Shown here: piece after piece, positions 22,542 through 53,072 of the stretch | How the letters are laid out: each line of letters opens with the position of its first letter | How positions within the stretch are numbered: position 1 is the first letter of the stretch | Assembly: GCF_053078305.1 (NCBI RefSeq) | Contig: NZ_CP166879.1 | Reading direction: 5' to 3' (one strand) | Length of the DNA stretch: 64,000 nt | Position numbers and translations under genes: made by a program | Notes under the pieces: model-generated | The model's database searches: none | Told to the model about the DNA's origin: nothing | Seen by the model: the letters and a program-made list of their open reading frames with translations, nothing else

Positions 22542-22542
22542 T

Positions 22543-23170: not shown

Positions 23171-25594
23171 TTAAACCTTTTCGATCTGGACAAGATTGCT
23201 GTGCGACGGGTTTCCCTTTGCCAGCGGTGAAGGGCGGTGAGAGGTCAGAATATTAATACTGCCGCCGTGATCGACCCGGTCACCAAACATATCCGCTTTA
23301 AGCCACGCACCTTGCCCGATGGCGGTAACGCCAGGCAGAATACGCGGAGTCACTTTTGCGGCAATCAGCATTTCTCCATTATTGTTAAATACCCGCACGG
23401 TATCGCCATGACGGATACCGCGAGCCTGAGCATCAATGGGGTTGATCCACACCTCTTGTGGGCAGGCCTGCTGTAACACATCAATATTGCCGTAGCTGGA
23501 GTGGGTACGCGCTTTGTAGTGGAAGCCCGTTAACTGCAGTGGATAGGTTTTCCGCAGGGGATCGTCCCAGCCATCAAAACCTGGGGTATACGCAGGAAGG
23601 GGATGAATAATTTCATCTTTTTTCAATTCCCAGGTATCTGCAATCTTCGCCAGTCGTTCAGAATAAATTTCGATTTTCCCCGAAGGTGTTTTCAACGGGT
23701 TTGCCTGTGGATCTTCACGGAATGCGCGGAAAGCGACGTAGTGTTCTTCCGGGCATTTTTTCTTAAAGATCCCGGTCGTTTTCATCTCCTCGTAGTCGGG
23801 CATCTCAGGGTTACGTTCCTTCGTTTTCGCATGGAGATATTTGATCCATTCATGCTGACTGCGACCTTCAGTAAAGGTTTGATAAACGTCCGGTCCTAAG
23901 CGTTTGGCGACTTCACTCAGCATCCAGTAGATGGGTTTGCGTTCAAATTTTGCTGAGGTTGCGGGTTGGGCGAGGATCACATAGCCCATATTCCCTGCAG
24001 ATTCATGAGAGATAAGGTCTTCTTGCTCTGTTGGCATCAGGTCGGGCAACAGGATATCGCAATACTTAGCCGAGGCCGTCATGAAGTGGTCAATGCCGAC
24101 AATCATCTCGCACTTGCTGTCATCCTGAAGCACCTCATGGGTGTGATTGATGTCGCCATGTTGATTGATCAATGTGTTACTGGCGTAGCACCATAAAAAC
24201 TTGATGGGGACATCCAGTTTTTCTTTTCCACGAACACCATCACGGGTCGCGGTCATTTCCGTACCATGGTCGATGGCATCTGTCCATGTAAAGACGGAAA
24301 TCTGCGTTTTAACAGGATTCTCGAGCATCGGGAACCATTCTACCCCCAGATCCCAGCTACCTTCGCGTACGCCTGAGTTGCCGCCGTTTATGCCGACGTT
24401 ACCGGTGAGAACGGAAAGCATGGCAATAGCGCGGGATGTTTGTTCGCCGTTGGAGTGTCGTTGTGGCCCCCAACCCTGACAAATATAAGCAGGTTTTGCT
24501 GAACCGATCTCTCGTGCCAACTGGATAATTTTTTCTGCCGGGATGCTGGTGATTTTTGCTGCCCATTCCGGCGTTTTAGCTATGCCGTCAGGCCCTTCGC
24601 CCAGAATATAGGCTTTATAATGCGCGTTACGTGGTGCGTTGGCGGGCAGCGTTTTTTCATCGTAACCAACACAATATTTGTCGAGAAATGGCTGATCGAC
24701 CATGTTTTCAGTAATCAGTACCCAGGCAATCGCACAGGCCAGTGCGCCATCGGTGCCAGGGCGAATGGGCAGCCATTCATCTTCACGCCCGGCAGCTGTG
24801 TCGTTATAACGTGGATCGATGACGATCATGCGTGCGTTTGAACGTTCGCGGGCTTGCTCGACGTAGTAAGTGACACCACCGCCGCTCATCCGCGTTTCTG
24901 CCGGGTTATTTCCGAACATAACGACCAGTTTCGTATTGGCGATATCATCCGGGCTGTTGCCATCATTGGCACCGAACATATAACTCATTGCGGCACTGAT
25001 CTGTGCGGTACTGTAGCTGCCATAGCGACTGAGAAAACCACCGCAAGAGTTCATCAGACGGTACGGGACGTTTGAGTTGGTGATGTTTCCGCCATCTACG
25101 CCTGTTCCGTACAGGACATGTACAGCCTCATTGCCGTAATCTTTCAGGATCCGCCGAAGATTATCACTGATGGTATCCAGGGCTTCGTCCCAACTTATCC
25201 GTTCAAATTTACCTTCACCGCGCTTGCCGACGCGCTTCATGGGATATTTCAACCTATCAGGATGATTCATCCGTCGGCGGATAGAGCGCCCGCGTAAACA
25301 CGCTCGAACCTGATGATTACCGTAGACGTCGTCACCTGTCGTATCAGATTCCACCCAGTACACGGTGTCATCTTTCACATGCAAACGTAACAGACAGCGG
25401 CTCCCGCAGTTAACGGTGCAGGAACTCCAGACCGCTTTCTCTTCTACCGGAGCCTGTGCCGCCCGGACCATTTGGGAAAATGGCAGAGTGAAAGCACTGC
25501 TTGCCAGCGCAAGACTGCCAAGTGCGGAGGTTTTCATCAGACTTCTACGGCTGATTTCAGCCTTCATGAGCGCCTCTGTGGTATGGATTTTCAT
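23171..25594 (-). CDS. ynfF: Molybdopterin oxidoreductase catalytic subunit YnfF (DmsA paralogue)
   Basis: About 807-aa ORF with Tat signal (SRRSLMK) and Cys cluster; tandem paralogue of ynfE. Confidence 0.9.
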   Translation of the reverse strand: MKIHTTEALMKAEISRRSLMKTSALGSLALASSAFTLPFSQMVRAAQAPVEEKAVWSSCTVNCGSRCLLRLHVKDDTVYWVESDTTGDDVYGNHQVRACLRGRSIRRRMNHPDRLKYPMKRVGKRGEGKFERISWDEALDTISDNLRRILKDYGNEAVHVLYGTGVDGGNITNSNVPYRLMNSCGGFLSRYGSYSTAQISAAMSYMFGANDGNSPDDIANTKLVVMFGNNPAETRMSGGGVTYYVEQARERSNARMIVIDPRYNDTAAGREDEWLPIRPGTDGALACAIAWVLITENMVDQPFLDKYCVGYDEKTLPANAPRNAHYKAYILGEGPDGIAKTPEWAAKITSIPAEKIIQLAREIGSAKPAYICQGWGPQRHSNGEQTSRAIAMLSVLTGNVGINGGNSGVREGSWDLGVEWFPMLENPVKTQISVFTWTDAIDHGTEMTATRDGVRGKEKLDVPIKFLWCYASNTLINQHGDINHTHEVLQDDSKCEMIVGIDHFMTASAKYCDILLPDLMPTEQEDLISHESAGNMGYVILAQPATSAKFERKPIYWMLSEVAKRLGPDVYQTFTEGRSQHEWIKYLHAKTKERNPEMPDYEEMKTTGIFKKKCPEEHYVAFRAFREDPQANPLKTPSGKIEIYSERLAKIADTWELKKDEIIHPLPAYTPGFDGWDDPLRKTYPLQLTGFHYKARTHSSYGNIDVLQQACPQEVWINPIDAQARGIRHGDTVRVFNNNGEMLIAAKVTPRILPGVTAIGQGAWLKADMFGDRVDHGGSINILTSHRPSPLAKGNPSHSNLVQIEKV

Positions 25595-25654
25595 CATTAC
25601 TCACTTATTGCTTTTCAAACAAAATGTCATGCCAGAATTTATGGTTGTAGTGGG

Positions 25655-28081
25655 TTATATTTTTTCGATCTCGACCAGATTCGTATGCTGCGGGTTTCCC
25701 TTCGCCAGTGGTGAAGGGCGCAGAGTGGTTAGCGTATTCACACAGCCTCCATGGTCGATTTTATCGCCAGACATATTGGCCTCGTGCCAGGCTCCCTGGC
25801 CCATAGCGCTAACTCCAGGGAGAATACGTGGTGTCACTTTGGCTGGTAGCCGAACTTCGCCACGATGGTTAAACACCCGCACCATATCGCCGTTGGCAAT
25901 CCCACGTTTCTGCGCATCTATAGGGTTGATCCACACCTCCTGACGGCAGGCAGCCTTCAGGAGATCAATATTGCCGTAGGTCGAGTGAGTACGGGATTTG
26001 TAATGGAAACCAAACAGTTGCAGTGGAAAGGTACTACGTTCAGGGGAGTCCCAGCCTTCAAAGGTTGAGGCATAAACTGGCAGTGGGCTTATCACTTCAT
26101 CTTTTTCCAGTTCCCAGGTACGGGCAATTTCCGCCAGCTTGCTGGAATAAATTTCAATCTTACCGGAAGGTGTTTTAAGTGGATTTGCCTCGGGGTCGTC
26201 ACGAAATGCTTTGTAGGCGACAAAATGACCATTGGGATCTTTACGCTTATAGATACCCATTTTTTTCAGTTCGTCGTAAGATGGTAACGCCGGATCTTTG
26301 GCAAGCATTTTGGCGTACAGATGTTGTAACCATTGTTCCTGCGTGCGACCTTCAGTGAACTTTTGATAGACGTCAGGTCCAAGACGTTTCGCGACTTCAC
26401 TCAGGATCCAGTAAATCGGTTTACGTTCGAATTTTTCGCTGGTGACTGGCTGGAGGAAAATGAGATATCCCATGTTACCGGCGTAGTCGTTAGGAATAAT
26501 ATCTTCCTGCTCAACGGTCATCAGGTCTGGCAGCAGAATGTCGGCATATTTTGCCGATGAGGTCATAAAGTTTTCGATGACCACAATCATTTCGCATTTC
26601 GATTCGTCCTGCAGAATTTCATGCGTTTTGTTGATGTCAGAATGCTGATTAACGAGGGTATTTCCCGCGTAGTTCCAGATGAACTTAATGGGCACATCCA
26701 GTTTATCTTTGCCGCGGACGCCATCGCGGATTGCCGTCATTTGCGGAACATGATCGATAGCATCTGTCCAGCTGAAGCAGGAAATTGACGTTTTGACCGG
26801 ATTATCCAGCACCGGCAGTCGCTCTATGGTAATGGTATAGGTCGATTCACGCGCGCCACTATTTCCGCCGCTGATGCCGACATTGCCCGTCAGAATAGGC
26901 AACATAGCAATAGCGCGTGCGGTCAGTTCGCCGTTTGCCTGGCGTTGCGGCCCCCAGCCCTGGCAGATATAAGCGGGTTTTGCTGTGCCAATTTCACGCG
27001 CCAGTTTGATGATACGGTCCACCGGGATACCGGTAATTTGCGAAGCCCACTGCGGCGTTTTCGCTGTGTTATCATCACCTTCACCAAGAATATAGGCTTT
27101 ATAGTGACCATTTTTGGGTGCATCTGCAGGTAAGGTTTTTTCGTCATAGCCGACGCAGTATTTATCGAGAAAAGGTTGATCAACGAGATTTTCGTTAATC
27201 AATACCCAGGCAATCCCCGCAACCAGCGCGGCATCGGTGCCCGGGCGAATAGGAAGCCATTCATCTTCACGACCAGCAGCCGTATCGGTATATCGCGGAT
27301 CGATAACAATCATTTTGGCGTTCGATTTCTCGCGCGCTTTTTCAAGAAGATAAGTGATGCCACCGCCGCTCATGCGGGTTTCTGCCGGGTTGTTACCAAA
27401 CATCACGACCAGCTTGCTGTTTTCAATATCCGTGGTGCTGTTGCCATCATTACTGCCGTAGGTGTAGGGCATGGCACAGGAAATTTGTGCGGTGCTGTAG
27501 GAGCCATACTGATTGAGTGAACCGCCGTAGCAGTTCATCAGGCGTTTGACCGCCGAGGCTGATGGCGAAGAGCGGGTCATATTGCCGCCAACGATCCCCG
27601 AAGAGTACTGAATATATACAGCCTCATTGCCATATTGTTCGACGGTTTTCTTCAGGCTACTGGCGATAGTATCCAGGGCTTCATCCCAGCTAATCCGTTC
27701 GAATTTGCCTTCGCCGCGTTTGCCCACGCGTTTCATTGGGTAATTCAAGCGATCGGGATGATTAATACGCCGACGGATGGAGCGACCACGCAAACAGGCG
27801 CGTACTTGATGATTGCCATACTCGTCGTTGCCGGTGTTGTCAGTTTCCACCCAGATCACTTCATTATCTTTAACATGCAGACGAAGTGCACAGCGGCTAC
27901 CACAGTTGACGGAACAGGCACCCCAGACCACTTTTTCGCTGGCCTGTTGTACTGCTGCCGCTGCACTGCGCAGGGTGAACGGTAAAGAAAAATCGCCTGC
28001 AGCCAGCGCCAGAGAACCTATTGCGGTAGATTTAACGAGTGTTCTGCGGCTGATGCCCACCATTTGTTCATTTTTGGACAT
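25655..28081 (-). CDS. ynfE: Molybdopterin oxidoreductase catalytic subunit YnfE (DmsA paralogue)
   Basis: 808-aa ORF with Tat signal (SRRTLVK); first gene of the ynfEFGH-dmsD operon. Confidence 0.9.
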   Translation of the reverse strand: MSKNEQMVGISRRTLVKSTAIGSLALAAGDFSLPFTLRSAAAAVQQASEKVVWGACSVNCGSRCALRLHVKDNEVIWVETDNTGNDEYGNHQVRACLRGRSIRRRINHPDRLNYPMKRVGKRGEGKFERISWDEALDTIASSLKKTVEQYGNEAVYIQYSSGIVGGNMTRSSPSASAVKRLMNCYGGSLNQYGSYSTAQISCAMPYTYGSNDGNSTTDIENSKLVVMFGNNPAETRMSGGGITYLLEKAREKSNAKMIVIDPRYTDTAAGREDEWLPIRPGTDAALVAGIAWVLINENLVDQPFLDKYCVGYDEKTLPADAPKNGHYKAYILGEGDDNTAKTPQWASQITGIPVDRIIKLAREIGTAKPAYICQGWGPQRQANGELTARAIAMLPILTGNVGISGGNSGARESTYTITIERLPVLDNPVKTSISCFSWTDAIDHVPQMTAIRDGVRGKDKLDVPIKFIWNYAGNTLVNQHSDINKTHEILQDESKCEMIVVIENFMTSSAKYADILLPDLMTVEQEDIIPNDYAGNMGYLIFLQPVTSEKFERKPIYWILSEVAKRLGPDVYQKFTEGRTQEQWLQHLYAKMLAKDPALPSYDELKKMGIYKRKDPNGHFVAYKAFRDDPEANPLKTPSGKIEIYSSKLAEIARTWELEKDEVISPLPVYASTFEGWDSPERSTFPLQLFGFHYKSRTHSTYGNIDLLKAACRQEVWINPIDAQKRGIANGDMVRVFNHRGEVRLPAKVTPRILPGVSAMGQGAWHEANMSGDKIDHGGCVNTLTTLRPSPLAKGNPQHTNLVEIEKI

Positions 28082-28180
28082 AACTCACTCCCTGTTCTTT
28101 ATCGTTATATAAAAGTTTATATATTGAATATTTAGCGCGCTAATAATAGAGGAAGTCTACCCATTTTGGGTTAAGAATTA

Positions 28181-28194
28181 TTAATCCATATCAA
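28181..28194. promoter_or_regulatory. Possible FNR-type site upstream of ynfE
   Basis: TTAATCCATATCAA resembles TTGAT-N4-ATCAA with one mismatch, about 100 bp upstream of the ynfE start; operon is known to be anaerobically expressed. Confidence 0.3.
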
Positions 28195-28278
28195 TAGAAG
28201 GGTATGAGTAATAAGGTGGGTTATGTTATATGTTCAAATCGCCGGATGCGTCGTATCCGGCGTTCAGTCGATAATGTA

Positions 28279-28584
28279 TTACTGCGGTTCGGCAGGCACG
28301 CCATCCTGGTTAGACTGCGCGGGAGCAGAGACGTTACCGCTGGTGGTGCGGGTGTAGAGAATTTTATGCGTATCATTAGCGCAATGCCCGACGACCTGGG
28401 AATCAGGCTGATCAACCTGGTCATTGGGTACAATACTTAACGTGAAGCTGCTTTCGGGTACGCCATTATTGATAATGCGTTGTGATATATCGCTCTGTAT
28501 GCGCTCACAGGATCCCGGCGCGGCGAGTACCGTGGGTGAGGAGAGGGCGAGCAGAAGCGCGGCACAGCAGGCTGAGAGTTTCAT
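28279..28584 (-). CDS. ynfD: Secreted protein YnfD (DUF1161)
   Basis: Translation MKLSACCAALLLALSSPTVLA (signal peptide); AAGGAG SD 6 nt upstream of this ATG. Confidence 0.8.
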   Translation of the reverse strand: MKLSACCAALLLALSSPTVLAAPGSCERIQSDISQRIINNGVPESSFTLSIVPNDQVDQPDSQVVGHCANDTHKILYTRTTSGNVSAPAQSNQDGVPAEPQ

Positions 28585-28691
28585 CATAAGCTCCTTACGC
28601 GAAGATAACTTCTTTAAGCATAGCATTTAACGTGTAAAGTACTGTATTTGCTACTATGATTGAGAATCATCTCTACTCTCTGGTGACTGAT

Positions 28692-29402
28692 GTGAAATAC
28701 AAATTACTGCCATGCTTACTCGCGATATTACTCACAGGATGTGACCGCACAGAGGTAACACTTTCATTTACTCCTGAGATGGCCAGTTTCTCTAATGAAT
28801 TCGATTTTGATCCGCTGCGTGGTCCGGTAAAAGATTTCACTCAGACATTAATGGATGAGCAAGGTGAAGTGACGAAACGTGTTTCTGGAACTTTGTCGGA
28901 AGAAGGCTGTTTTGATTCACTCGAATTACTGGATCTGGAAAATAATACCGTGGTCGCTCTGGTACTGGACGCCAATTATTACCGTGATGCCGAGACGCTG
29001 GAGAAGAGAGTACGTTTACAGGGAAAATGCCAGCTAGCGGAATTACCTTCCGCCGGGGTGAGTTGGGAAACCGATGATAATGGCTTCGTGATTAAAGCCA
29101 GCAGCAAACAGATGCAGATGGAATATCGCTATGATGATCAGGGGTATCCGCTGGGTAAAACCACGAAAAATAACGACAAAACATTATCTGTCAGCGCCAC
29201 GCCATCAACGGATCCGATCAAAAAATTAGATTACACAGCGGTTACTTTACTGAACAATCAACGGGTTGGTAATGTAAAACAGAGCTGTGAATATGACAGT
29301 CACGCCAATCCGGTGGACTGTCAGCTAATCATTGTTGATGAAGGAGTAAAACCCGCCGTCGAACGGGTTTACACCATCAAAAATACAATCGATTATTATT
29401 AA
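28692..29402 (+). CDS. ynfC: Lipoprotein YnfC (UPF0257)
   Basis: GTG start giving MKYKLLPCLLAILLTGC lipobox; 236 aa. Confidence 0.8.
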   Translation: MKYKLLPCLLAILLTGCDRTEVTLSFTPEMASFSNEFDFDPLRGPVKDFTQTLMDEQGEVTKRVSGTLSEEGCFDSLELLDLENNTVVALVLDANYYRDAETLEKRVRLQGKCQLAELPSAGVSWETDDNGFVIKASSKQMQMEYRYDDQGYPLGKTTKNNDKTLSVSATPSTDPIKKLDYTAVTLLNNQRVGNVKQSCEYDSHANPVDCQLIIVDEGVKPAVERVYTIKNTIDYY

Positions 29403-29404
29403 TG

Positions 29405-29965
29405 CTATTGTGCGGTCGGCTTCAGGAGAGTCTGACCCGGTGTTTTGTGCTCTGCCAGATACTGATGCTGGAATATACACATGCGAATGGCATTACGATA
29501 TTGACCATTAATAAAGAACTCATGCATCAATTCACCTTCAACCGTAAAGCCAAGCTTGCGGTAAATGTGAATCGCTTTTTCATTCTCTTTATCAACGATC
29601 AGATACAGCTTATAGAGATTGAGAACGGTGAAGCCATAGTCCATTGCTAATTTGGCGGCACGGGTTGCCAGACCTTTCCCTTGATACTCCGGGGAGATAA
29701 TTATCTGAAATTCTGCGCGGCGATGAACATGGTTAATTTCCACCAGCTCCACCAGACCGGCTTTTTCGCCGTCACATTCCACCACAAAGCGCCGTTCGCT
29801 CTGATCGTGAATATGCTTATCATACAGATCAGAGAGTTCAACAAAGGCTTCGTAGGGTTCCTCAAACCAGTAACGCATCACACTGGCGTTATTGTCGAGT
29901 TGATGTACATAGCGTAAATCTTCACGCTCCAGCGGGCGTAGCTTAACACTGTGGGCGCTTGGCAT
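29405..29965 (-). CDS. speG: Spermidine N1-acetyltransferase SpeG (GNAT)
   Basis: 186-aa [26 protein letters not shown]... with GNAT motifs. Confidence 0.9.
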
Positions 29966-29999
29966 AACGTGTCCTTACATTCCTTAAATCAATAACAGG

Positions 30000-30341
30000 T
30001 TAGGGGGTAATAACGCGGCCAGTTCGACGGTCCAGGCAGCGCAAAGTATTTGGCTCCCAGTAGGCATTGATGTTGGCGCTTTGCTCACATTTATCGCGGT
30101 TATCAAAAGCGGCGTCGGCTTTATCCCACTCTTTTTCAGTGCGTTTATTCACTTTCTGACGCAGATTGCGCGTGTCATTCCATTGCTCTTTTTCCATAGC
30201 GGCGTGCTGGCGGCTTTGTGCACTGTCGCCAGACTCAATCACCAGTTTGTTAGTTTCGGCATGAACAGTTGTGCTCAATGCCAGTGCGCAAGGCAGCAGA
30301 AAAGCGAGCAGGCCGATTCGTTTGCTGAGAGTGATTTTCAT
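30000..30341 (-). CDS. ynfB: Secreted protein YnfB (UPF0482)
   Basis: 113-aa ORF with signal peptide; synteny. Confidence 0.8.
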
Positions 30342-30475
30342 AATTCATTCCCTGTGTGAATGATTAAAGGTGATTCTACACCATCCACTGCGAACGCAAA
30401 ACGTACCAGGAGGGTGTTTATATTGATGATATTATGTCGCCCTATAACTATACATGATGTCAATAAGTGACAAAG

Positions 30476-30802
30476 ATGATTAAAACAACGTTACTATTTT
30501 TTGCTACTGCGCTGTGTGAAATTATTGGATGCTTTCTGCCCTGGTTGTGGTTAAAACGAAACGCCAGTATCTGGCTGTTGCTTCCGGCGGGGATTTCACT
30601 GGCGCTGTTTGTCTGGTTGTTAACGTTGCATCCTGCGGCGAGTGGGCGTGTTTACGCGGCTTATGGTGGCGTTTATGTCTGCACGGCGTTGATGTGGCTG
30701 CGCGTTGTGGATGGCGTGAAACTGACTCTTTATGACTGGACGGGTGCGTTGATTGCGCTTTGCGGCATGTTGATCATTGTTGCGGGCTGGGGGCGCACGT
30801 AG
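30476..30802 (+). CDS. ynfA: Membrane protein YnfA (UPF0060)
   Basis: Translation [20 protein letters not shown]...; 108 aa, four TM helices. Confidence 0.8.
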
Positions 30803-31007
30803 GAACATAAATCCATTTTATCAATAAGATACGAGGAAGTGTCAGCTGACAAAAGGTATTCTATTTCATCTTTTGTCAACCGTTCACAGCGCAAATATAC
30901 GCCTTTTTTTGTGATCACTCCGGCTTTTTTTGATCTTCATACTTGTATGGTAGTAGCTCAGTTGCGTAGATTTCATGCATCACGACAAGCGATGCAAGGA
31001 ATCGAAC

Positions 31008-32222
31008 ATGAAGATCGTAAAGGCTGAAGTTTTTGTTACCTGTCCGGGGCGTAATTTCGTCACATTAAAAATCACCACTGAGGACGGTATTACGGGCCTT
31101 GGGGATGCCACCCTCAATGGACGTGAGCTTTCTGTGGCCTCTTATTTGCAGGATCACCTTTGTCCGCAGCTTATTGGTCGCGATGCGCACCGTATCGAAG
31201 ATATCTGGCAGTTTTTCTATAAAGGTGCTTACTGGCGTCGCGGTCCGGTTACGATGTCGGCCATTTCAGCGGTTGATATGGCGCTGTGGGATATTAAAGC
31301 CAAAGCTGCCAACATGCCGCTTTACCAGTTACTCGGCGGCGCGTCTCGTGAAGGGGTGATGGTTTATTGCCATACCACCGGTCACAGTATTGATGAAGCT
31401 CTGGATGATTATGCCCGTCATCAGGAGCTGGGATTCAAAGCCATCCGCGTGCAGTGCGGCATCCCTGGTATGAAAACCACCTACGGCATGTCGAAAGGTA
31501 AAGGTCTGGCTTATGAACCCGCAACCAAAGGACAGTGGCCGGAAGAGCAGCTGTGGTCGACGGAGAAATACCTCGATTTCATGCCGAAATTGTTTGACGC
31601 GGTACGTAACAAGTTTGGTTTTAATGAACATTTGCTGCATGACATGCACCATCGCTTAACGCCTATTGAAGCGGCGCGCTTTGGTAAAAGCATTGAAGAT
31701 TATCGCATGTTCTGGATGGAAGACCCGACGCCTGCGGAAAACCAGGAATGCTTCCGTCTCATTCGCCAACATACCATCACACCCATCGCGGTGGGTGAAG
31801 TCTTCAACAGCATCTGGGACTGCAAGCAACTGATTGAAGAGCAACTTATCGATTATATCCGCACCACGCTGACCCATGCAGGCGGAATTACCGGTATGCG
31901 CCGGATTGCCGATTTTGCTTCGTTGTATCAGGTACGTACTGGCTCACACGGTCCTTCCGATTTGTCACCAGTCTGCATGGCTGCGGCGCTGCACTTTGAT
32001 CTGTGGGTCCCCAATTTCGGTGTCCAGGAATACATGGGTTATTCCGAACAAATGCTCGAAGTCTTCCCGCACAACTGGACTTTCGATAACGGCTATATGC
32101 ATCCGGGAGACAAACCGGGTCTTGGCATCGAATTCGATGAAAAGCTGGCGGCGAAATATCCCTATGAACCTGCTTATCTGCCAGTCGCACGTCTGGAAGA
32201 TGGCACGCTGTGGAACTGGTAA
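31008..32222 (+). CDS. rspA: Starvation-sensing protein RspA (enolase superfamily, mannonate dehydratase-like)
   Basis: Translation [22 protein letters not shown]...; track ORF trimmed to the ATG at 31008. Confidence 0.9.
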
Positions 32223-32233
32223 GGAGTAAGATA

Positions 32234-33253
32234 ATGAAAAGCATATTAATTGAAAAACCGAATCAACTGGCGATTGTCGAACGTGAAATACCCACCCCGT
32301 CAGCGGGTGAAGTTCGAGTAAAAGTAAAACTTGCCGGAATTTGTGGTTCAGATAGCCATATTTATCGTGGGCATAATCCTTTTGCGAAATATCCGCGCGT
32401 CATTGGACATGAATTCTTTGGCGTCATTGATGCGGTGGGTGAAGGTGTGGCAAGCGCCAGAGTCGGTGAACGTGTTGCTGTCGATCCGGTGGTCAGCTGT
32501 GGTCATTGCTATCCGTGCTCTATAGGTAAGCCGAACGTTTGTACGACACTGGCTGTATTAGGTGTGCACGCTGACGGTGGTTTCAGTGAATATGCCGTGG
32601 TTCCGGCAAAAAATGCGTGGAAAATTCCTGAAGCAGTGGCCGATCAATATGCGGTGATGATCGAACCTTTTACCATTGCGGCTAACGTAACCGGTCATGG
32701 TCAACCGACTGAAAATGATACCGTTCTGGTTTACGGTGCCGGTCCAATCGGCCTGACGATCGTTCAGGTATTAAAAGGCGTCTATAACGTTAAAAATGTG
32801 ATTGTTGCCGATCGCATTGATGAACGACTGGAAAAAGCGAAAGAGAGCGGGGCTGACTGGGTGATTAATAACAGCCAGACACCGCTTGGCGAGATTTTCG
32901 CTGAAAAAGGCATCAAGCCGACATTAATTATCGATGCGGCTTGTCATCCTTCTATCTTGAAAGAGGCCGTAACGCTGGCTTCTCCAGCGGCACGTATTGT
33001 ATTGATGGGGTTCTCCAGTGAACCGTCTGAAGTGATTCAGCAAGGAATTACCGGAAAAGAACTCTCTATTTTCTCTTCACGCTTAAATGCAAATAAATTT
33101 CCGGTCGTTATCGACTGGTTAAGTAAAGGGTTAATTAAACCAGAAAAATTAATTACCCATACGTTTGATTTTCAGCATGTTGCTGATGCCATTAGTTTAT
33201 TTGAACAGGATCAAAAACATTGCTGCAAAGTCTTACTCACTTTTTCTGAATAA
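32234..33253 (+). CDS. rspB: Starvation-sensing protein RspB (zinc-type alcohol dehydrogenase family)
   Basis: Translation MKSILIEKPNQLAIVER..., GHEFFG zinc motif, GAGPIG Rossmann motif. Confidence 0.9.
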   Translation: MKSILIEKPNQLAIVEREIPTPSAGEVRVKVKLAGICGSDSHIYRGHNPFAKYPRVIGHEFFGVIDAVGEGVASARVGERVAVDPVVSCGHCYPCSIGKPNVCTTLAVLGVHADGGFSEYAVVPAKNAWKIPEAVADQYAVMIEPFTIAANVTGHGQPTENDTVLVYGAGPIGLTIVQVLKGVYNVKNVIVADRIDERLEKAKESGADWVINNSQTPLGEIFAEKGIKPTLIIDAACHPSILKEAVTLASPAARIVLMGFSSEPSEVIQQGITGKELSIFSSRLNANKFPVVIDWLSKGLIKPEKLITHTFDFQHVADAISLFEQDQKHCCKVLLTFSE

Positions 33254-33310
33254 TACCAATAACGGCGAGTAAGTAGTACGCATCTTACCTCTTTTTTAGA
33301 GATAACCATT

Positions 33311-33418
33311 ATGACAATAGAAAAACACGAAAGAAGCACTAAGGATTTGGTGAAAGCAGCGGTATCGGGATGGCTGGGCACTGCGCTTGAATTTATGGAT
33401 TTCAAGAGTCATGCATAG
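33311..33418 (+). pseudogene. ydfJ: 5' fragment of MHS-family transporter gene ydfJ, truncated by prophage insertion
   Basis: ORF MTIEKHERSTKDLVKAAVSGWLGTALEFMDF then stop after only 35 codons; the G-x3-E-[FW]-x-DF motif is the start of an MHS transporter; an integrase gene begins immediately downstream. Confidence 0.6.
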
Positions 33419-33446
33419 TAACCATTTGATAAATATTAAATTAATT

Positions 33447-34721
33447 TTACCCCGCCTTGTTATGGGGCATGGTTGGGGCAAACTCGCTTAGCTGTGTATT
33501 TAACAGCGTTACCTGTGCATTATTATTTTCTGACATCCATTTTCCGTACACCTGAAACACCATTTGCGCATCGGCATGCCCCATCTGGTTTGCTATGAAT
33601 GCAGGATTAGCACCAGCTGTTAGCGACCAGCAGGCATAAGTATGTCTCGACTGATATGATTTTCGGTGGCGGAGTCCTGCTCGTTTTATTGCTGCGTCCC
33701 ACATCTGTCTTATTGAGTCAACAGTAAAATGGTCACCATAATTTTTTACTCTCGCTGACACTTCAGGTTGAAAAACAAAGGTGCATTTTTGTTTTTCTGT
33801 TCTGCCATACTCTCTGAGGTGAACATCAATGATATGCTCTTTGCTCAGTCTCGTTAGTGTCATCTGATTCTGGAGGGCCTCGATTGCTGGCTTAATAAGG
33901 TGAATTACACGATTAGTCCCCGCCTGTGTTTTTGGTACCGTAAAATGGTCTTTTGCTAAATTTCTCCTGATCATCATTGTTCCATTTTTCAGATCTATGT
34001 CCTCCCATCCAAGTGCACACAACTCACCAGGGCGAACGCCAGTATAAACAGAAACACACCACAAATTTTTGGCTTGCTGATTTCTGCACGCATCTATAAG
34101 GCGGATAAATTCCTCCCGCGAAAGAGGATCTGGAATGGTTCTTGATTCCTTTAATGGCGATATCCCCTTAAACGGATTATCTGCCAGGTAGCTGTTATCA
34201 ACACCAAACTGGAACACGGCGTTAAGATTTGTCATGTAATTATTTACGGTAACAGCCGATCTCCCGGGTTGTGTAACAATATAGTTACTTTTGGGGATCT
34301 GGTATCCAGTCAGTAACTCTTTACGAACCTCCAGTAATTTTTCTTTATTAATCGATGAGGCAAGATTTTTTTCACCGATTATGCTCAGGATATTTTTGAT
34401 GACGGCACGGTATGTATTGAGTGAACTTCTGGCAACTTCGGCCTCTTTTAGTGCCAGAAATTTTTCGGCCAGTTCACCTATAGTCAAATTTTGTCTGGCT
34501 TCCCCAAATTTTTCCAGATTGTGGGAGTAGGGGAACTGTTTTGCGTAGTCAAAAATCCCCGTTTTTATTGCGTAACAAACAGAAGCGCGTAGTTCACCAG
34601 CGATGCGTCTGTTTTTTACTGTGTCAGGGACACCGAGGTTTTCCCTGACTCTTACGCCTTTATAAACAAACCAGATGCGTAATGTCCCCCCGTGTTTTTC
34701 TACGCCTGTCGGATATTTCAT
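33447..34721 (-). CDS. int: Phage integrase (tyrosine recombinase)
   Basis: 424-aa ORF with C-terminal catalytic R...H-x-x-R...Y region (RHTYACWSLTAG...HADAQMVFQVYGKW); adjacent to the disrupted ydfJ. Confidence 0.9.
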   Translation of the reverse strand: MKYPTGVEKHGGTLRIWFVYKGVRVRENLGVPDTVKNRRIAGELRASVCYAIKTGIFDYAKQFPYSHNLEKFGEARQNLTIGELAEKFLALKEAEVARSSLNTYRAVIKNILSIIGEKNLASSINKEKLLEVRKELLTGYQIPKSNYIVTQPGRSAVTVNNYMTNLNAVFQFGVDNSYLADNPFKGISPLKESRTIPDPLSREEFIRLIDACRNQQAKNLWCVSVYTGVRPGELCALGWEDIDLKNGTMMIRRNLAKDHFTVPKTQAGTNRVIHLIKPAIEALQNQMTLTRLSKEHIIDVHLREYGRTEKQKCTFVFQPEVSARVKNYGDHFTVDSIRQMWDAAIKRAGLRHRKSYQSRHTYACWSLTAGANPAFIANQMGHADAQMVFQVYGKWMSENNNAQVTLLNTQLSEFAPTMPHNKAG

Positions 34722-34755
34722 GCCAGCTTCTCTCGTTGATTAGTGTTGTTTTGGA

Positions 34756-35007
34756 TTAAGCAAGGTGACGTCTTGGCCTTGCCGATGCCTGACGCTCGAT
34801 CCAGCGATCAATTTCTTCCAGATTGTAAAAACATGGGCTGTTATCCCACGGCATGCCGTCATGAGCGACATGTTTATACTCTCTCCCTTCCATAAATGAT
34901 TTTTCCCTGGCTTTTTTCAGTGTTCCTTTTTTTATTCCTTTCAGCGCAATTAACTGCTCTTCAGATACCCATTTGCCGGGAGAGACAATCATGATTACTT
35001 CACTCAT
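34756..35007 (-). CDS. xis: Putative excisionase
   Basis: 83-aa ORF immediately upstream of int on the same strand; typical xis position. Confidence 0.5.
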   Translation of the reverse strand: MSEVIMIVSPGKWVSEEQLIALKGIKKGTLKKAREKSFMEGREYKHVAHDGMPWDNSPCFYNLEEIDRWIERQASARPRRHLA

Positions 35008-35077
35008 CGCTTTTTATCTCTTACATCAGATGAGCGCCGGTTGCAGAATACCAGTCACAACCGGCGACGGTTGAACA

Positions 35078-37597
35078 TTAAAAATCAGCCTGATTCGGGA
35101 ACAGTTTTTGCCAGATAACTGAAACGTATTTTGCCTGGTAACGCGCATCGTGCAGGGCATTATGGCGTTCACCCTCAAATGTGATGACGTTGCGGGCATC
35201 GAAATCCATCACCAGTCCCAGGGCAACAATCGTTCTTACATCACGATCGTTGTAGTGACGCCACGGGCAGGGGATTTCTTGTCGTTTATATGAACGGCTT
35301 AAAATTACGTTGTCGAAGTTGGCTCCATTTCCCCAGACCTGAACAAAAAACTCACCGGAGTTTTCGTCTATAAATTCCCGTAATTGTAAAAGCGCATCAT
35401 CAAGCGGTATTCGATCAGCTAAAATGGCGGCACGGGCTTCGCCAGAGCGTTGAAGCCACCATTCGATGGTGCTTATGTCTACAGTGCCACCACATGTATC
35501 CATATCAATTATTTTGCTGAATTCTGGCCCCAGTTCTCCGGTTTGCGGATCGAAAAAGACTGCGCCTATTGAGGCTATTGGTGCGTCAGGATTTTTGCCC
35601 ATCGTTTCAAGGTCAATCATCAGGTGATCCCACATTCTGCTGGTGGATGTGCTTTCACGATGACCGTTCACCTTAATTAAGGGATTTGCTGTCTCGCCTG
35701 TTTCATTATTGCCATTGGCATGTTGATCGCCTTCGGTGCACTCCTTGTTCGGGTGTCCGGCACTTTCCATTTCCTCCAGATCTTTTTCCCGGGCTTCATC
35801 CTGGCTTTCTTCGTTGAATGTCTCCTGGTATGTTGCGTCGCCCATCACCGCGCCACAGTCAGGACAGTTGCCGCCACCGCTCTGACCGCAGGCGGTGCAG
35901 ACTTTTTCCTCTTCCTGTTGCGCTACTGGTTCGGATTGTTTCGTTTCTGGCTCGTCTTGTAACGCATTTTGGCTGTTTTGTTCTGCTTTCTGGTCGTTCT
36001 GTTCCGTTTCTTGCTGGTTCTGGTTCACAGAATCGCAGGTTTCAATCCCCTTAACCCATTTCGAATCATTCGGGTCGCTAATCCCTTCAACAAACTCACC
36101 ACGGGAAGCGGCAAGCAATTTGTCGGCATCTGGTCGACTGATGTCTGCTGCCTCCATAATTTTATTTACTTCTTCAGCAGTAACTTTTACCTGTGACTTG
36201 TCATCCAGCGGCTGCGGGTCCTGATGATGTTCAACTGTATCCGCTGCCATTGTTTCAGCCGTTGCCTGTTCATCTGCCATTGCGCCAGATGGCTGCGGTT
36301 TTTCTTCATCATCCTGTTTTCCTTCTTTTGTTACACGCTGAGGGATAGGGGCAGAGGAGCGACCGCAGGCAATATCCACGATTTCCGGATCAGGGTTGGC
36401 ATGATCGGTTTCGGTCAGTACTTTGTTCAGATATTCGGTAACACGGTGGGGAGTAGCCTCGATACCAATTGGTGCTTCTTTCACGGACGCAACTACTATC
36501 GCGCGGGAATAATCCAGGTGACCAGGCATGGCGATGAATTTGTCACGAAAAACAGAAAAGGGCGGCTTATTCTCTGAAACGATTTCTTCAATGCGTTTGG
36601 CGTGTGCCGGATGTGGATTGTAAATATCGATGTCCATTGAACGGGCCAGAACGCCAGCGGCAACGTCACGTTCCACTGACGCATCATCGTGGACAAAACC
36701 TTCACCGCGATCGGTAAGAATTCCTCCGCCAGCATTAGCGCCGGACGGGGTGCGATTGATTTCAGATACGCAATTTCCCTTTGCCCACTCTTTTGTCAAC
36801 AGCCCCTGATCAAGGTAGTCAGTCTTCATCCAGGTGGAAATGAACTTGTCGAATTCTGCCGGGCTGATACGGCGTGTTGTTGCGTGAGTGAATGCCTTTT
36901 CCACCGAATGCGCCAGTCTTCCAAGATGATGGTTTGTCAGCTTATCCAGCTCAGGATGCGAACGTACTGCAGTAAGCAGGCTCTGTATGTTTCCATCTTC
37001 CATATCCATTTCGATGCGGATCACGTCCTTGCGTTGTTCTGGTGTGGCGTGATGTTTGTATTTCTCGTCGAACTCCTGACCAAAGAAGTAGAGGTGCAGG
37101 AAGCGATGGGTAAGACTCAGGGTGGAGACGGGGATTTCACATTCAGGGCAGTCATCGTTGCTGTCCGGGGATTCGCTTTTATCTGCGTTCTCTGTCTGAG
37201 AGTCACTTTGTTCATCGCAGTCACGGCTGACACCTGTAACAGCTTCGCCGCTGGTATTGTCAGTGCTGGCAGGTTTGTCCTGAGCTGAAGGGGAAGGAGC
37301 TATAAATATCATTGTGATACCATCTTCCCCGCCTTTTTCGTAACGGTTGCAGAATTCAGTATCAAACACGCCTTCTGGAGGAAGGTCATTCACAACGGGT
37401 AAATGGACGCGAACAGGTTTTTTAAAGTCGTCCTCGTCATAATCATTATCATCCATTGCGGTAATGCAGCGGGAGATGGCAACAGATAATTTTTTTGCTG
37501 TAGTCCAGTAAAAACCACCTTTAATCCCAAGGCGTTTTCTGACCTTGTCATTTTTTGCTTCGCAATATAGTGCAAAAGTTTCTTTATCAGTGCTCAT
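35078..37597 (-). CDS. Prophage exonuclease, 839 aa, with C-terminal DEDDh-type 3'-5' exonuclease domain (often annotated exodeoxyribonuclease VIII)
   Basis: C-terminal approx. 190 aa carry the exonuclease motifs (MIDLETMG ... NGANFD ... HNALHDARYQA); central region strongly acidic and low-complexity with a CxxC...CxxC pair. Confidence 0.6.
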   Translation of the reverse strand: MSTDKETFALYCEAKNDKVRKRLGIKGGFYWTTAKKLSVAISRCITAMDDNDYDEDDFKKPVRVHLPVVNDLPPEGVFDTEFCNRYEKGGEDGITMIFIAPSPSAQDKPASTDNTSGEAVTGVSRDCDEQSDSQTENADKSESPDSNDDCPECEIPVSTLSLTHRFLHLYFFGQEFDEKYKHHATPEQRKDVIRIEMDMEDGNIQSLLTAVRSHPELDKLTNHHLGRLAHSVEKAFTHATTRRISPAEFDKFISTWMKTDYLDQGLLTKEWAKGNCVSEINRTPSGANAGGGILTDRGEGFVHDDASVERDVAAGVLARSMDIDIYNPHPAHAKRIEEIVSENKPPFSVFRDKFIAMPGHLDYSRAIVVASVKEAPIGIEATPHRVTEYLNKVLTETDHANPDPEIVDIACGRSSAPIPQRVTKEGKQDDEEKPQPSGAMADEQATAETMAADTVEHHQDPQPLDDKSQVKVTAEEVNKIMEAADISRPDADKLLAASRGEFVEGISDPNDSKWVKGIETCDSVNQNQQETEQNDQKAEQNSQNALQDEPETKQSEPVAQQEEEKVCTACGQSGGGNCPDCGAVMGDATYQETFNEESQDEAREKDLEEMESAGHPNKECTEGDQHANGNNETGETANPLIKVNGHRESTSTSRMWDHLMIDLETMGKNPDAPIASIGAVFFDPQTGELGPEFSKIIDMDTCGGTVDISTIEWWLQRSGEARAAILADRIPLDDALLQLREFIDENSGEFFVQVWGNGANFDNVILSRSYKRQEIPCPWRHYNDRDVRTIVALGLVMDFDARNVITFEGERHNALHDARYQAKYVSVIWQKLFPNQADF

Positions 37598-38073: not shown

Positions 38074-38631
38074 TCAACAATGAATTTTTAGTAATTGCTC
38101 CACAGTCATATTTTTAATTGCGCTCCGGTTTACAAGAGTCCAGCCTTGTTTCTCCAGATAAAACTGGAAGGTATCCAGGGTGCAGACCATTGCGCCGTCC
38201 GGAACGGTTTCAGTGAATTTGATATTGCCGTGTTCGTCGAGACGGATAACCAGGGTACGTCCGTCCCCGTGAATCATTTTGTCGGGAGACGGGGCGTTAT
38301 TCTGGCGCAGTTCTTTCTCCATGCGATCGAACTCAGCGATGTAGGCTTCTTTAAATGCAGCGGCTTTTTTGCCGGTGAAGCCCATCACCAGGAAAACGAA
38401 GCCGTTTTTGGTGATTTGGTACATGGGGCGTTTTTCGCCTTTGGCATCGGTGTAGGTAACCGACACAAAATTGTGTTCGTTAAAATTTGATGAGCAGTCT
38501 AAATTGCGAATTTTATCCAGTACTCGCTCGTGACGCTTACCAAAGAACTCTGCAATTGCAACAGACGTAGTGACAGCGCGACCATTTTTGATGGTTACGT
38601 CAGGGTGAGAAAGGGTAGGGATAGTAGCCAT
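38074..38631 (-). CDS. Rha-family phage regulatory protein
   Basis: Translation MATIPTLSHPDVTIKNGRAVTTSVAIAEFFGKRHERVLDKIRNL matches the Rha N-terminal motif; AAGAGG SD upstream; the track's longer ORF (to 38928) crosses a terminator-like hairpin. Confidence 0.6.
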   Translation of the reverse strand: MATIPTLSHPDVTIKNGRAVTTSVAIAEFFGKRHERVLDKIRNLDCSSNFNEHNFVSVTYTDAKGEKRPMYQITKNGFVFLVMGFTGKKAAAFKEAYIAEFDRMEKELRQNNAPSPDKMIHGDGRTLVIRLDEHGNIKFTETVPDGAMVCTLDTFQFYLEKQGWTLVNRSAIKNMTVEQLLKIHC

Positions 38632-38794
38632 AATGGCAGCCTCTTGGTTGAGTATTAATAACTCACCACCAAGGTTTTCCACGACCATAAGGGTGGTGAG
38701 ACGTACAGGGGTGGAAATACCGGTCAACCAAGAATCCGGCCAGCCTTGCGGCTGCCCTGCACGCCCCACCATAATCTGAATGTGGCTGTGCATT

Positions 38795-38823
38795 ACGCAT
38801 AAAAAAACCGCCTGAGCGCGGTT
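38795..38823 (-). terminator. Weak intrinsic terminator between the DicF-like RNA and the Rha-like gene
   Basis: Minus-strand AACCGCGCTCAGGCGG followed by TTTTTTT; stem only 4-5 bp. Confidence 0.3.
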
Positions 38824-39119
38824 ATGCGCTTGATTGAATTCCGGGTTTCCACGCCCGGCACCCGCTTTATGAGGTGCAGATGAACTATAATTCCACCCGT
38901 TCTGGTTTTCAATAGCTACATTCAACATTTTCTCTTACCCTTCATCACCGAAGTGAACTTTGTTGATGCAGTGCCTGGTGCCTCCAGGTGACGTTAACCA
39001 GTTAACAATTAACGCCGGAATACAGAAGTATGCCCGTTACGCCCCGTAAAAGACCACTTTACGGTTTTAACTGTTCCGCGTGCGCTTAGCCGCATTCACC
39101 GCATCACAAAATTCACTTT

Positions 39120-39177
39120 AAAAAGGGTGGCAGAGCAGTCACGGAGTAGAACTGATGCCACCAAAGACTACACATGG
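39120..39177 (-). ncRNA. dicF: DicF-like small RNA
   Basis: Minus strand reads ...GGTGGCATCAGTTCTACTCCGTGACTGCTCTGCCACCCTTTTT, near-identical to the 3' two-thirds of K-12 DicF including its terminator hairpin; 5' segment diverges. Confidence 0.55.
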
Positions 39178-39428
39178 GTATTGTGGCGGGGCTGTCACTT
39201 AAGCGTATGGTCAACCTGACAACCCGGTGCATTTTCTGGAGCAATGGAGGAAACCCCAGCCATACTTACCGCCGCGCCATTTCGCGGAGTGCCACAACCG
39301 GAAGCGCACGTTCGAAGAAATCTAACGACAAGCCTTCTAAGGGAAAGAGCTTCGCCGTACGCTTTCGCGTTATGCCCTGACTTTTCAGGGTAAATTAACC
39401 AGTGGCAACCTGTTTTTACTGGTGCTAA

Positions 39429-39581
39429 TCAGTTAGTGTTTCTTGCTAACCAGCGACGCGCGCCAGCTTCGGTTTTAAACTTTTTACTTTTGGTATACGT
39501 CATCGCGGTAAACGTGCCGTCCTGGTTAGGGAACACACCGCATACCAGAGATTCGTTGTTGCCAAGATTGAGCGTATCCAT
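39429..39581 (-). CDS. ydfA: YdfA-like small protein (DUF1391)
   Basis: 50-aa ORF MDTLNLGNNESLVCGVFPNQDGTFTAMTYTKSK... downstream of the dicA-like gene, as in Qin. Confidence 0.55.
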   Translation of the reverse strand: MDTLNLGNNESLVCGVFPNQDGTFTAMTYTKSKKFKTEAGARRWLARNTN

Positions 39582-39771
39582 GTTGACCTCATTTCCCCTT
39601 AACGCCGGGGTAGCGGAACTGTTTGCTGAGAACACCGTGCGGTGTCTTGATGGATGGTAATTTAGTTTTCTCATTGCGCTTGGTCAAATGTTTTTGATGA
39701 GAAATCTCAATATTTAATACAAAACAAAGCCAATACATTGAAATGTAAGGCTTTAAATTTTGTGAAGGGGG

Positions 39772-40179
39772 TTATTGATGTTTGTTACGTTTGCGAGCTT
39801 CTAGTAGCTCGGTGAATAGGCGATTAAAATTCTCAACGCGGGCACGGAGTTCGCTGATCTGTGCTTGCTGCTCTGATTTTGGAAGTGCGCGATACAATCG
39901 CAACATCTCCAACTCATCTTCCGATAAGTCTAAGGCGCTGTTGAGTGCAACTGGTGGATCTGGTGTTTTATCCTCGTCACCAAACAGTATCCAAGTTGGT
40001 GAACATTGCAATACCTCAGCTAGGCGATGCAAATTTTGCCCGCGCGGGGCTGTATGGTCGCTTTCCCATAGTGAAATTGATGAGCCAGATACGCCAGCAG
40101 CTTTGCTTAAATCGTTTTGACTTAAACCAACCTGTTTGCGTCTTTCTCTAATTCGTTGACCTAAAGTTTTCTCGTTCAT
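39772..40179 (-). CDS. dicA: DicA-like HTH (XRE family) prophage repressor
   Basis: 135-aa ORF with N-terminal HTH (LSQNDLSKAAGVSGSSISLWE) and the DicA-like C-terminal segment VLQCSPTWILFGDEDK; divergent from the Cro-like gene. Confidence 0.8.
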   Translation of the reverse strand: MNEKTLGQRIRERRKQVGLSQNDLSKAAGVSGSSISLWESDHTAPRGQNLHRLAEVLQCSPTWILFGDEDKTPDPPVALNSALDLSEDELEMLRLYRALPKSEQQAQISELRARVENFNRLFTELLEARKRNKHQ

Positions 40180-46094: not shown

Positions 46095-46385
46095 CCTGGC
46101 CTGAAGCATTAACAACGGTAGGAATTGCGATGGCGGTGGCGCTGGTGGTGTATTCGATTTGCCGCTGGGGATAAAAACGGTTTGCGGGAAAAGGAGAGTT
46201 AAGTAGAATTGCAGCGGGTGCTTGAGGCTATCTGTCTCAGGCATGAACACCAAAAGGCAGATAGAGAAAAGCCCCAGTTAACATTACGCGTCCGGCAAGA
46301 CGCTTAACATTAATCTGAGGCTCAATCTGTGAACGGCAAATCTAGGTTAGCCTCTTACGCGCCGAAAGGCAAGGAGAAGCAGGCT

Positions 46386-46541
46386 ATGAAGCAGCAAAAG
46401 GCGATGTTAGTCGCCCTGATCGTCATCTGTATTACCGTCATTGTGACGGCACTGGTAACGAGGAAAGACCTCTGCGAGGTACGAATCCGAACCGGCCAGA
46501 CGGAGGTCGCTGTCTTCACAGCTTACGAACCTGAGGAGTAA
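46386..46541 (+). CDS. hokD: Hok/Gef-family type I toxin (HokD-like)
   Basis: Translation MKQQKAMLVALIVICITVIVTALVTRKDLCEVRIRTGQTEVAVFTAYEPEE; upstream in-frame extension corresponds to the overlapping mok frame. Confidence 0.85.
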   Translation: MKQQKAMLVALIVICITVIVTALVTRKDLCEVRIRTGQTEVAVFTAYEPEE

Positions 46542-46643
46542 GAGACCAGGCGGGGGAGAAATCCCTCGCCACCTCTGATGTGCCAGGCATCCTCAACGCA
46601 CCCGCACTTAACATGCTTCGGCGGGTTTTGTTGTATTAGAATA

Positions 46644-51757: not shown

Positions 51758-51833
51758 GGCCCTTTAGCTCAGTGGTGAGAGCGAGCGACTCATAATCGCC
51801 AGGTCGCTGGTTCAAATCCAGCAAGGGCCACCA
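51758..51833 (+). tRNA. tRNA with CAU anticodon, ileX-like (tRNA-Ile2 lysidine type)
   Basis: Cloverleaf GGCCCTTTAGCTCAGTGGTGAGAGC...ACTCATAATCG...GGTTCAAATCC...AAGGGCCACCA; close to E. coli ileX. Confidence 0.75.
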
Positions 51834-51842
51834 TATCACATA

Positions 51843-51919
51843 CCGCCATTAGCTCATCGGGACAGAGCGTCAGCCTTCGAAGCTGGTTGCGCGGGGTTCG
51901 AGTCCTCGATGGCGGTCCA
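51843..51919 (+). tRNA. tRNA-Arg (anticodon TCG)
   Basis: Acceptor stem CCGCCAT/ATGGCGG, anticodon loop CTTCGAA, T-loop GGTTCGAGTCC, 3' CCA. Confidence 0.7.
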
Positions 51920-51932
51920 TTATCGGTATTCA

Positions 51933-52009
51933 GCGTTGTTAGCTCAGCCGGACAGAGCAATTGCCTTCTAAGCAATCGGTCACTGGTTCGAATCCAGTAC
52001 AACGCGCCA
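51933..52009 (+). tRNA. tRNA-Arg (anticodon TCT)
   Basis: Acceptor stem GCGTTGT/ACAACGC, anticodon loop CTTCTAA, T-loop GGTTCGAATCC, 3' CCA. Confidence 0.75.
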
Positions 52010-52771: not shown

Positions 52772-53019
52772 CCGGGTATCAGTCATGCCCCGAAAATTTT
52801 AAATGTCTCACAATTCAGACGGTTGACAGTTGTCTGTTTTGCGGGGAGTTTGTTAAAAGAAACTGGCATGGTGAATCCCCCTGAGCGGAGGGGCGACTGG
52901 TGCATTAGGTGTTATCTTTGATACCTAGGAAAGTGAACGCGCGGGTTTGGTTGCACCGGGCTGAACTCACCGGGAGGCACCCGGCATCATGCGCATGATG
53001 ATACAGATACGCGGCTTTA

Positions 53020-53046: not shown

Positions 53047-53072
53047 AATTTTGTAAGATATGAGTAAACTAA

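Follow-up and report, generated by a model that had tools for sequence, protein, structure and literature searches.

A recurrent DicF allele of a Qin-type prophage that probably keeps the ftsZ/pykA seed and lacks the xylR seed

DicF belongs to the few prophage small RNAs (sRNAs) whose host targets are defined, and it uses its two ends on different ones: pairing with ftsZ and pykA maps to the 3′ part and pairing with xylR to the 5′ end, as shown genetically by Balasubramanian et al. (PMC5069750). A DicF-like element with a diverged 5′ region, carried on the minus strand of a 64,000-nt stretch of contig NZ_CP166879.1 (RefSeq assembly GCF_053078305.1; hereafter, the window), raises the question of whether such an element is still a DicF and, if so, which of these targets it has kept. 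The initial annotation, made from the sequence, had called it a close relative of the K-12 Qin sRNA, and the Rfam 15 scan bore this out: model RF00039 (DicF) was matched over its full length (1–52 of 52) with 61.1 bits and E = 6e-11, computed for the whole 64-kb window, above the gathering score (GA) of 48, and a U5 tail follows directly 3′ of the match (Table 1). We took dicF b1574 of K-12 (NC_000913.3 1649382–1649434), a 53-nt RNA, as the reference. The alignment with DicF family members that had been proposed as a check showed nt 13–53 to be kept apart from four positions, and the 5′ part to be different.

Such a match could in principle be the chance resemblance of an ordinary terminator hairpin, and similarity to the terminator hairpin alone had been named from the outset as the finding that would overturn the assignment. 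Inside the mature RNA, the similarity is indeed essentially limited to the hairpin and the UUU ahead of it. However, homology to K-12 Qin extends for ~280 nt upstream and ~190 nt downstream of DicF, with the flanks 80% identical to the K-12 dicF region over 440 nt; the operon is syntenic with that of K-12, and the prophage is at the Qin chromosomal site. Because the hairpin holds the sequence that pairs with ftsZ and pykA (PMC5069750) and the homology continues into the flanks, the likeness is not that of a chance terminator match. Taken with the E value, the synteny, and the shared site, this refutes chance resemblance, to which we give next to no probability. The window element is a genuine DicF copy. 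It belongs to a well-known sRNA family as a minority allele that recurs among genomes, and is not a new kind of element; we refer to it as type B, and to the K-12 form as type A.

Table 1. Positions of the features of the type B dicF locus in the window, followed by the loci (L numbers, IMG/VR) that hold other alleles of the same slot
Feature	Position or locus	Strand	Evidence
DicA-type repressor	39772..40179	-	NF007257 (DicA) 238.3 bits, cut-off 101; 56% identical to K-12 DicA
Promoter-like site at dicBp (PL-type) position, TTGACC-17-TAAATT, 9/12	39659..39687	-	consensus match only
YdfA (DUF1391) homologue, first operon gene	39429..39581	-	DUF1391 annotation in close relative; 90% DNA identity to K-12 ydfA
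Structured leader and trailer enclosing the sRNA slot	39072..39315	-	consensus fold of 9 alleles
Single-stranded spacer / 5′ arm ACCCAUGUGUAGUCUUU, 17 nt	39163..39179	-	gap and substitutions in alignments
DicF sRNA, type B allele	39120..39176	-	RF00039 match 39125-39176 and U5 tail 39120-39124
Terminator hairpin with ftsZ/pykA-pairing sequence; 7-bp lower stem, 4-bp upper stem, 11-nt loop	39126..39162	-	fold and covariation
STnc100-like element, directly 3′ of DicF	38959..39113	-	RF02076 30.8 bits, below GA 47, E 1.3e-4
isrK-like sRNA	38801..38877	-	RF01394 68.4 bits, GA 50
C4 antisense RNA (P1/P7 immI type)	38689..38776	-	RF01695 79.8 bits, GA 45
Rha-family phage regulatory protein	38074..38631	-	TIGR02681 113 bits, cut-off 45.95
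DicB cell-division inhibitor homologue, 62 aa	37875..38063	-	NF049927 (NCBIfam CellDivInhibDicB) 111.2 bits, cut-off 100
STnc100-like element, other alleles	L238 5351-5570; L243 5283-5485; L242 4270-4424; L246 1376-1581		below GA 47
K-12-type arm (A) with loop C	L244, L246, L251		
K-12-type arm (A) with short plain hairpin (E)	L236, L245, L259, L260		
CCAUGUUGA-type arm (D) with U-rich loop (D)	L242, L253, L258		
CCAUGUUGA-type arm (D) with loop F	L238		
Arm UGUGUGUAGUCUUUGG, near-identical to that of the window, with loop F	L243		

In the region 18150–37597, the window runs collinear with K-12 1,668,000–1,651,551, the DNA flanking the prophage being 98.3% identical up to the integrase, and the prophage therefore occupies the attachment site of Qin. 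Less decayed than its K-12 relative, it has an intact integrase ORF (33447–34721) and a full-length RecE-like ORF (35078–37597), whereas K-12 has pseudogenes and an IS2 in their place. The locus shares with K-12 the hairpin, the ftsZ/pykA string, the U-rich stretch and U tail, the leader and trailer, the ydfA(BC)–dicB position, and the DicA-type repressor, but it differs in the missing 5′ arm and RNase E site, the stem changes, U29C, the missing ydfB and ydfC, and the inserted isrK, C4, and Rha.

On the minus strand, the DicA-type repressor is followed by the promoter-like site, ydfA, the leader, DicF, the STnc100-like element, isrK, C4, Rha, dicB, and a ydfD-like ORF, so that the dicA–ydfA–dicF–dicB order is that of K-12 Qin. 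A tblastn context survey found neither ydfB nor ydfC in the window operon, and among the IMG/VR loci both allele types were found with or without these genes. A consensus scan gave no promoter-like site between that of ydfA and DicF. A separate promoter for type B DicF was considered and rejected on this ground. With no such site directly 5′ of it, DicF is likely to be cut out of the operon mRNA, as in K-12.

The terminator stem had been described as retained, with paired changes that preserve pairing, and our comparison agrees. Pairwise alignment showed that 37 of the 41 positions of K-12 nt 13–53 are identical in the window allele, the changes being C18U, U21C, U29C, and G50A; both the string ACTCCGTGACTGCTCTGCC and the 19-nt ftsZ/pykA-pairing string ACUCCGUGACUGCUCUGCC are the same in the two alleles. 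The stem reads GGUGGCA/UGCCACC in the window and GGCGGUA/UGCCGCC in K-12: the lower-stem pair 18–50 has changed from C:G to U:A, which is compensatory, and pair 21–47 from U·G to C:G, and position 29 in the loop has changed from U to C. The hairpins have the same predicted structure and practically equal minimum free energies (−15.8 kcal/mol in the window vs. −15.9 in K-12). Among 21 distinct variants from public prophage contigs, 98.7% of the cells of the 11-pair structure were paired, and pair 18–50 was CG in 14, UA in four, and UG in one; the U·G state, found in loci L206 and L212, is the expected intermediate. The C:G to U:A change counts as one evolutionary event, consistent with the structure and not an independent proof of it. 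The U-rich stretch ahead of the stem and the U tail, which are Hfq-binding features, are both kept.

The 5′ part does differ from that of K-12, as the initial annotation had stated, but what had been described as divergence is, in the pairwise and nine-allele alignments, a 14-nt deletion plus ~10 substitutions affecting the 5′ 12–13 nt. The gap is located immediately 5′ of the UUUGG ahead of the stem, and the missing block corresponds to K-12 AAUUUUCUGGUGACG, which holds the RNase E cut and most of the mature 5′ arm; this cut forms the 5′ end of the 53-nt K-12 DicF (PMC5069750; PMC10448788). The K-12 site AUCAA↓UUUUCUGG falls inside the 14-nt gap and the substituted block in these alignments and is absent in the window allele. 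Here the window allele has AUGUGUAGUC, whose counterpart in the alignments is the part of the K-12 leader 5′ of the RNase E cut, not the mature arm. The spacer that separates the DicF stem from the last helix of the leader is 31 nt long in K-12, where it holds both the RNase E site and the xylR seed, whereas in the window it measures 17 nt and has neither. Because the missing 14 nt carry the site and the seed, a different 5′ end and no repression of xylR are expected, and the 5′ end of the window DicF is probably shorter than that of K-12. RNase E cleaves at a consensus of the RN↓WUU type, and no full site of this type was evident in the 17-nt spacer. With the K-12 site deleted as well, the small RNA might not be released efficiently from the window allele.

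To see what these changes imply for targets, duplex energies against the K-12 target regions were computed for arm and core separately with RNAduplex, a crude measure that leaves out accessibility. Full-length energies were over-extended and unreliable and were set aside; the full-length duplex of type B with ftsZ reached a z of only −1.6. The K-12 arm (nt 5–16) forms 12 contiguous base pairs with xylR +8..+21 at a predicted −16.7 kcal/mol, while the window arm showed no pairing at this site and its best xylR duplex (−7.1 kcal/mol) lies at an unrelated one. The core is predicted to pair with ftsZ at −24.7 kcal/mol (vs. −29.2 for K-12) and with pykA at −29.6 kcal/mol (vs. −28.9). U29C breaks one A:U pair of the K-12 ftsZ register, and an alternative register with a G:C pair is possible. 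These model energies support the loss of the xylR seed and the retention of the ftsZ/pykA seed, and support nothing finer. The target prediction proposed for ftsZ and other DicF targets has thus given retained core pairing and lost xylR pairing; of the suggestion that the 5′ change could alter target specificity, the loss of a target is supported and the gain of new ones less well so. Additionally, in an alignment of type A loci, nt 12 of the K-12-type arm is itself variable (G, A, or U), as is nt 10 (A or G). The predicted 12-bp xylR duplex includes both of these nucleotides, and xylR control may therefore differ even among K-12-type alleles.

The sRNA is embedded in a larger folded scaffold. 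In the consensus fold of nine alleles, an outer helix, CGUGCGC (39304–39310)/GCGCACG (39079–39085), is invariant in all nine; the leader and trailer also form an inner helix, GUUGUGGC/GCCACAAU, and a hairpin, GGGUUGUCA...UGACAGCCC, in which one pair covaries as UA, UG, and GC. This alignment-based scaffold was used instead of single-sequence folds of the ~270-nt precursor, which were no better than those of shuffled sequences (z −0.4 and −0.9). The 190-nt DicF precursor of K-12 has an RNase III-dependent 5′ end (PMC10448788), and, by K-12 coordinates, this end maps into the 5′ strand of the outer helix. The STnc100-like element directly 3′ of DicF is the sequence of the K-12 dicF–dicB spacer, conserved between the two; it contains a conserved stem-loop, CACCUGGAGGCACCAGGCAC, and followed four of the six other slot alleles scanned (32–38 bits). 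STnc100 and PasD have been linked as diverged relatives in a 2026 preprint (PMC13192938). Elsewhere in the window, a full-length STnc100 match (140.9 bits; 52837–53049, +) ends in a strong terminator, and three prophage tRNA genes (Met-CAT, Arg-TCG, and Arg-TCT; 51758–52009, +) lie ~0.8 kb upstream of it. Stx-type lambdoid phages typically have tRNA genes followed by STnc100 in their late-promoter region.

We investigated how widely type B occurs. Its 48-mer was found in 201 of 5,426 complete E. coli genomes, at 205 places that were all chromosomal, compared with 3,958 of the same 5,426 genomes and 6,457 places for the K-12-type 48-mer, and 159 or more of the complete E. coli genomes contain an identical 161-bp stretch. 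Strains 7/2 (NZ_CP023820) and FHI_NMBU_10 (NZ_CP046539) are examples of carriers of the identical allele. Type B also occurs away from the Qin site, as the prophage that carries it in 7/2 adjoins potCD. The type-B-specific 48-mer had no match in 50,697 sequenced phage records, and type B may therefore reside mostly in defective prophages. RefSeq has no feature annotated under either 48-mer match, and PGAP gave no ncRNA at type B in the records examined. A one-genome-per-species scan with a loose DicF loop pattern returned 60 hits, none of them from the E. coli representative, and hence says little on taxonomic range; only two of the hits, both in MAG contigs (L126 and L179), were true DicF, and hits in Photorhabdus and Vibrio were discarded as unrelated to DicF, being without stem and U tail. 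No O157:H7-labelled strain was among the 60 of the 201 type B genomes that were listed, and O157:H7 strains carry the K-12-type arm. According to the accounts of Melson and Kendall 2019 given in PMC7873438 and PMC9438474, EHEC O157:H7 has multiple DicF copies, four in number, which likewise belong to different lambdoid prophages of pathogenic E. coli. An incomplete literature search found no paper describing DicF alleles of the type B kind.

Type B was also found in ~40 IMG/VR loci, and in these the loop and 3′ half are nearly invariant although the search pattern, which fixed the 5′ stem half only, had left them free. The 16-nt arm, with four variable sites, is the most polymorphic segment; the loop and the 3′ half of the stem, 24 nt together, have two, and one more lies at the base between the stem and the U tract. 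These gapless counts are valid from ~64 nt 5′ to ~100 nt 3′ of the point where the hairpin starts, with indels beyond. The polymorphism is a mild argument against a role of the arm as a conserved new seed, the sample being small and closely related. As the type B loci are close relatives, the invariance of their loop is weak evidence of selection.

The position that DicF occupies between leader and trailer, here called the slot, was surveyed in IMG/VR with the conserved upstream flank and not with DicF itself. Across loci L235–L260, it held at least three types of 5′ arm and six different interiors of the hairpin, all within a scaffold that stays constant and consists of the structured leader, a GGCGG/CCGCC stem base, the U tail, and the STnc100-like trailer (combinations in Table 1). 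The DicF loop occurs both with arm A and with arm B. Other alleles scored below the GA of RF00039 (43.5 bits for loop C, 40.4 for L243, and 37.9 for L238), and the model left the D types, the E types, and L235 (loop H) undetected; the window allele is well inside the DicF family. From these sequences, it is conceivable that the dicF slot is a modular, recombining sRNA cassette of lambdoid prophages in which arm and hairpin interior are exchanged independently, and that the window holds a natural separation-of-function DicF with ftsZ/pykA kept, xylR dropped, and an arm that might recruit new targets. We offer this tentatively, at odds well short of even.

A comparable organization is known from AgvB, AsxR, and EcOnc03, which combine a conserved ~42-nt 3′ region with variable 14–18-nt 5′ regions that set target choice (PMC4104026). 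Like the DicF alleles, they are short prophage sRNAs with a conserved 3′ terminator region and a variable 5′ part, present as non-identical alleles at a fixed prophage position. They differ in lying downstream of PR′ and not in the early-left operon, in their unrelated sequence, and in being primary transcripts, not processed from an operon mRNA. The AgvB and AsxR models (RF02702 and RF02703) found no match in the window at gathering thresholds, nor at E values up to 1 in 38400–39500.

In our favored reading, with a probability of roughly 0.6, the window element is a functional DicF allele that a lambdoid prophage carries in its early-left (dicBF-type) operon; the allele keeps ftsZ/pykA, has lost xylR, and probably has a shorter 5′ end. 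Its transcription, processing, Hfq binding, and regulation of ftsZ and pykA would follow K-12 by analogy. Relief of the DicA-type repressor would permit transcription from the promoter upstream of ydfA through the structured leader, and the transcript would either stop at the DicF hairpin and U tract or read through into isrK/C4–rha–dicB. Cleavage by RNase III in the outer helix and by RNase E in the 17-nt spacer would release a small Hfq-binding RNA, whose loop and 3′ stem would pair with the ribosome-binding region of ftsZ and with pykA; together with DicB, DicF would block cell division.

The same deletion may instead have inactivated DicF as a trans-acting RNA, leaving the hairpin as only an intrinsic terminator or attenuator (tL-like) of the early-left operon. 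The loss of the known RNase E processing site would fit such a relic, as would the absence of type B from the sequenced phages searched, and a bare terminator role is plausible in that several slot alleles keep the terminator with unrelated loops (e.g., the short hairpin of L236). Yet a terminator needs no specific loop, and the 19-nt ftsZ/pykA string equals that of K-12; precisely because other slot alleles keep the terminator with quite different loops, the retention of the DicF loop is meaningful. Furthermore, the stem changes all restore or strengthen pairing, and the U-rich stretch and U tail are intact. As the loop, the pairing, and these U-rich parts are all kept, we favor a working DicF over a bare terminator and consider the latter unlikely. 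Somewhat less likely again is that DicF has acquired a new function, with AUGUGUAGUC serving as a new single-stranded seed for other mRNA or sRNA targets and the hairpin keeping ftsZ control. The arm is, to be sure, a discrete sequence that recurs in ~40 loci and 201 genomes, its near-identical form in L243 is joined to a different hairpin, so that arms and hairpins behave as exchangeable modules, and AgvB, AsxR, and EcOnc03 provide a precedent. However, its alignment partner in K-12 is leader sequence 5′ of the RNase E cut and it may lie outside the mature RNA, it is the segment in which type B loci are most polymorphic, and its complement has no second site in the 64-kb window.

If the reading as a functional allele is true, a common ftsZ/pykA-only DicF would mean that strains differ in the regulon of a horizontally acquired sRNA, and that division inhibition is the function of DicF under constraint. 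The arm and loop combinations in one scaffold would also be a tractable system for studying sRNA seed swapping by recombination, as far as the alignments suggest.

Downstream of DicF, the initial annotation had placed a DicB-like gene at about 1 kb, separated from DicF by a Rha-family gene not present at this position in K-12. The start of DicB was measured at 1,062 nt downstream of the DicF hairpin, in accordance with that estimate, vs. 175 nt in K-12. The protein is 61% identical to K-12 DicB, with the N-terminal 32 residues well conserved and the C-terminal half diverged. The Rha-family gene was likewise recovered, and the K-12 interval holds no gene; the description is refined in that isrK, C4, and Rha together form a ~1-kb P1 immI-like module between dicF and dicB. 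The isrK-like sRNA has its own promoter-like site (TTGAAA-17-TATAGT, 38912–38884) and terminator (38823–38806), and the Rfam scan gave a weak c4-a1b1 match (24.5 bits). In P1/P7 immI and the Salmonella Gifsy-1 IsrK locus, isrK-like and C4 RNAs also precede a regulatory or antirepressor-type gene, as in the window insert; this likeness concerns the neighbor of DicF, and the cargo in the window is a Rha-family protein.

The gene model of Rha deserves comment. A mechanical 284-aa ORF (855 bp, 38074–38928) runs through C4 and isrK, and RefSeq relatives annotate this 855-bp ORF as the Rha protein. In the short form, which starts with the ATG at 38631, the Rha domain sets in as early as residue 11; this ATG is therefore likely the true start, and the annotated N-terminus is probably over-extended. 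The locus also matters for annotation, as RefSeq (PGAP) misses the ncRNA here and calls a Rha ORF across two Rfam-supported RNAs. In IMG/VR, the Rha module was seen between dicF and dicB in 13 of the 40 loci with type B and in 11 of the 112 with type A. Both allele types occur with and without it, and the insertion is therefore a recurrent mosaic option, not peculiar to the window. In E. coli 7/2 (NZ_CP023820), RefSeq records an 84-nt DicB pseudogene fragment with its C-terminus missing (L273 9142–9225) between DicF and the Rha module, which suggests that the module was inserted at the start of dicB, duplicating the dicB 5′ end. In another part of the window, a sok antitoxin RNA match of 109.7 bits was found at 46216–46391 (+), and positions 46372–46629 are 96.9% identical to the K-12 hokD locus.
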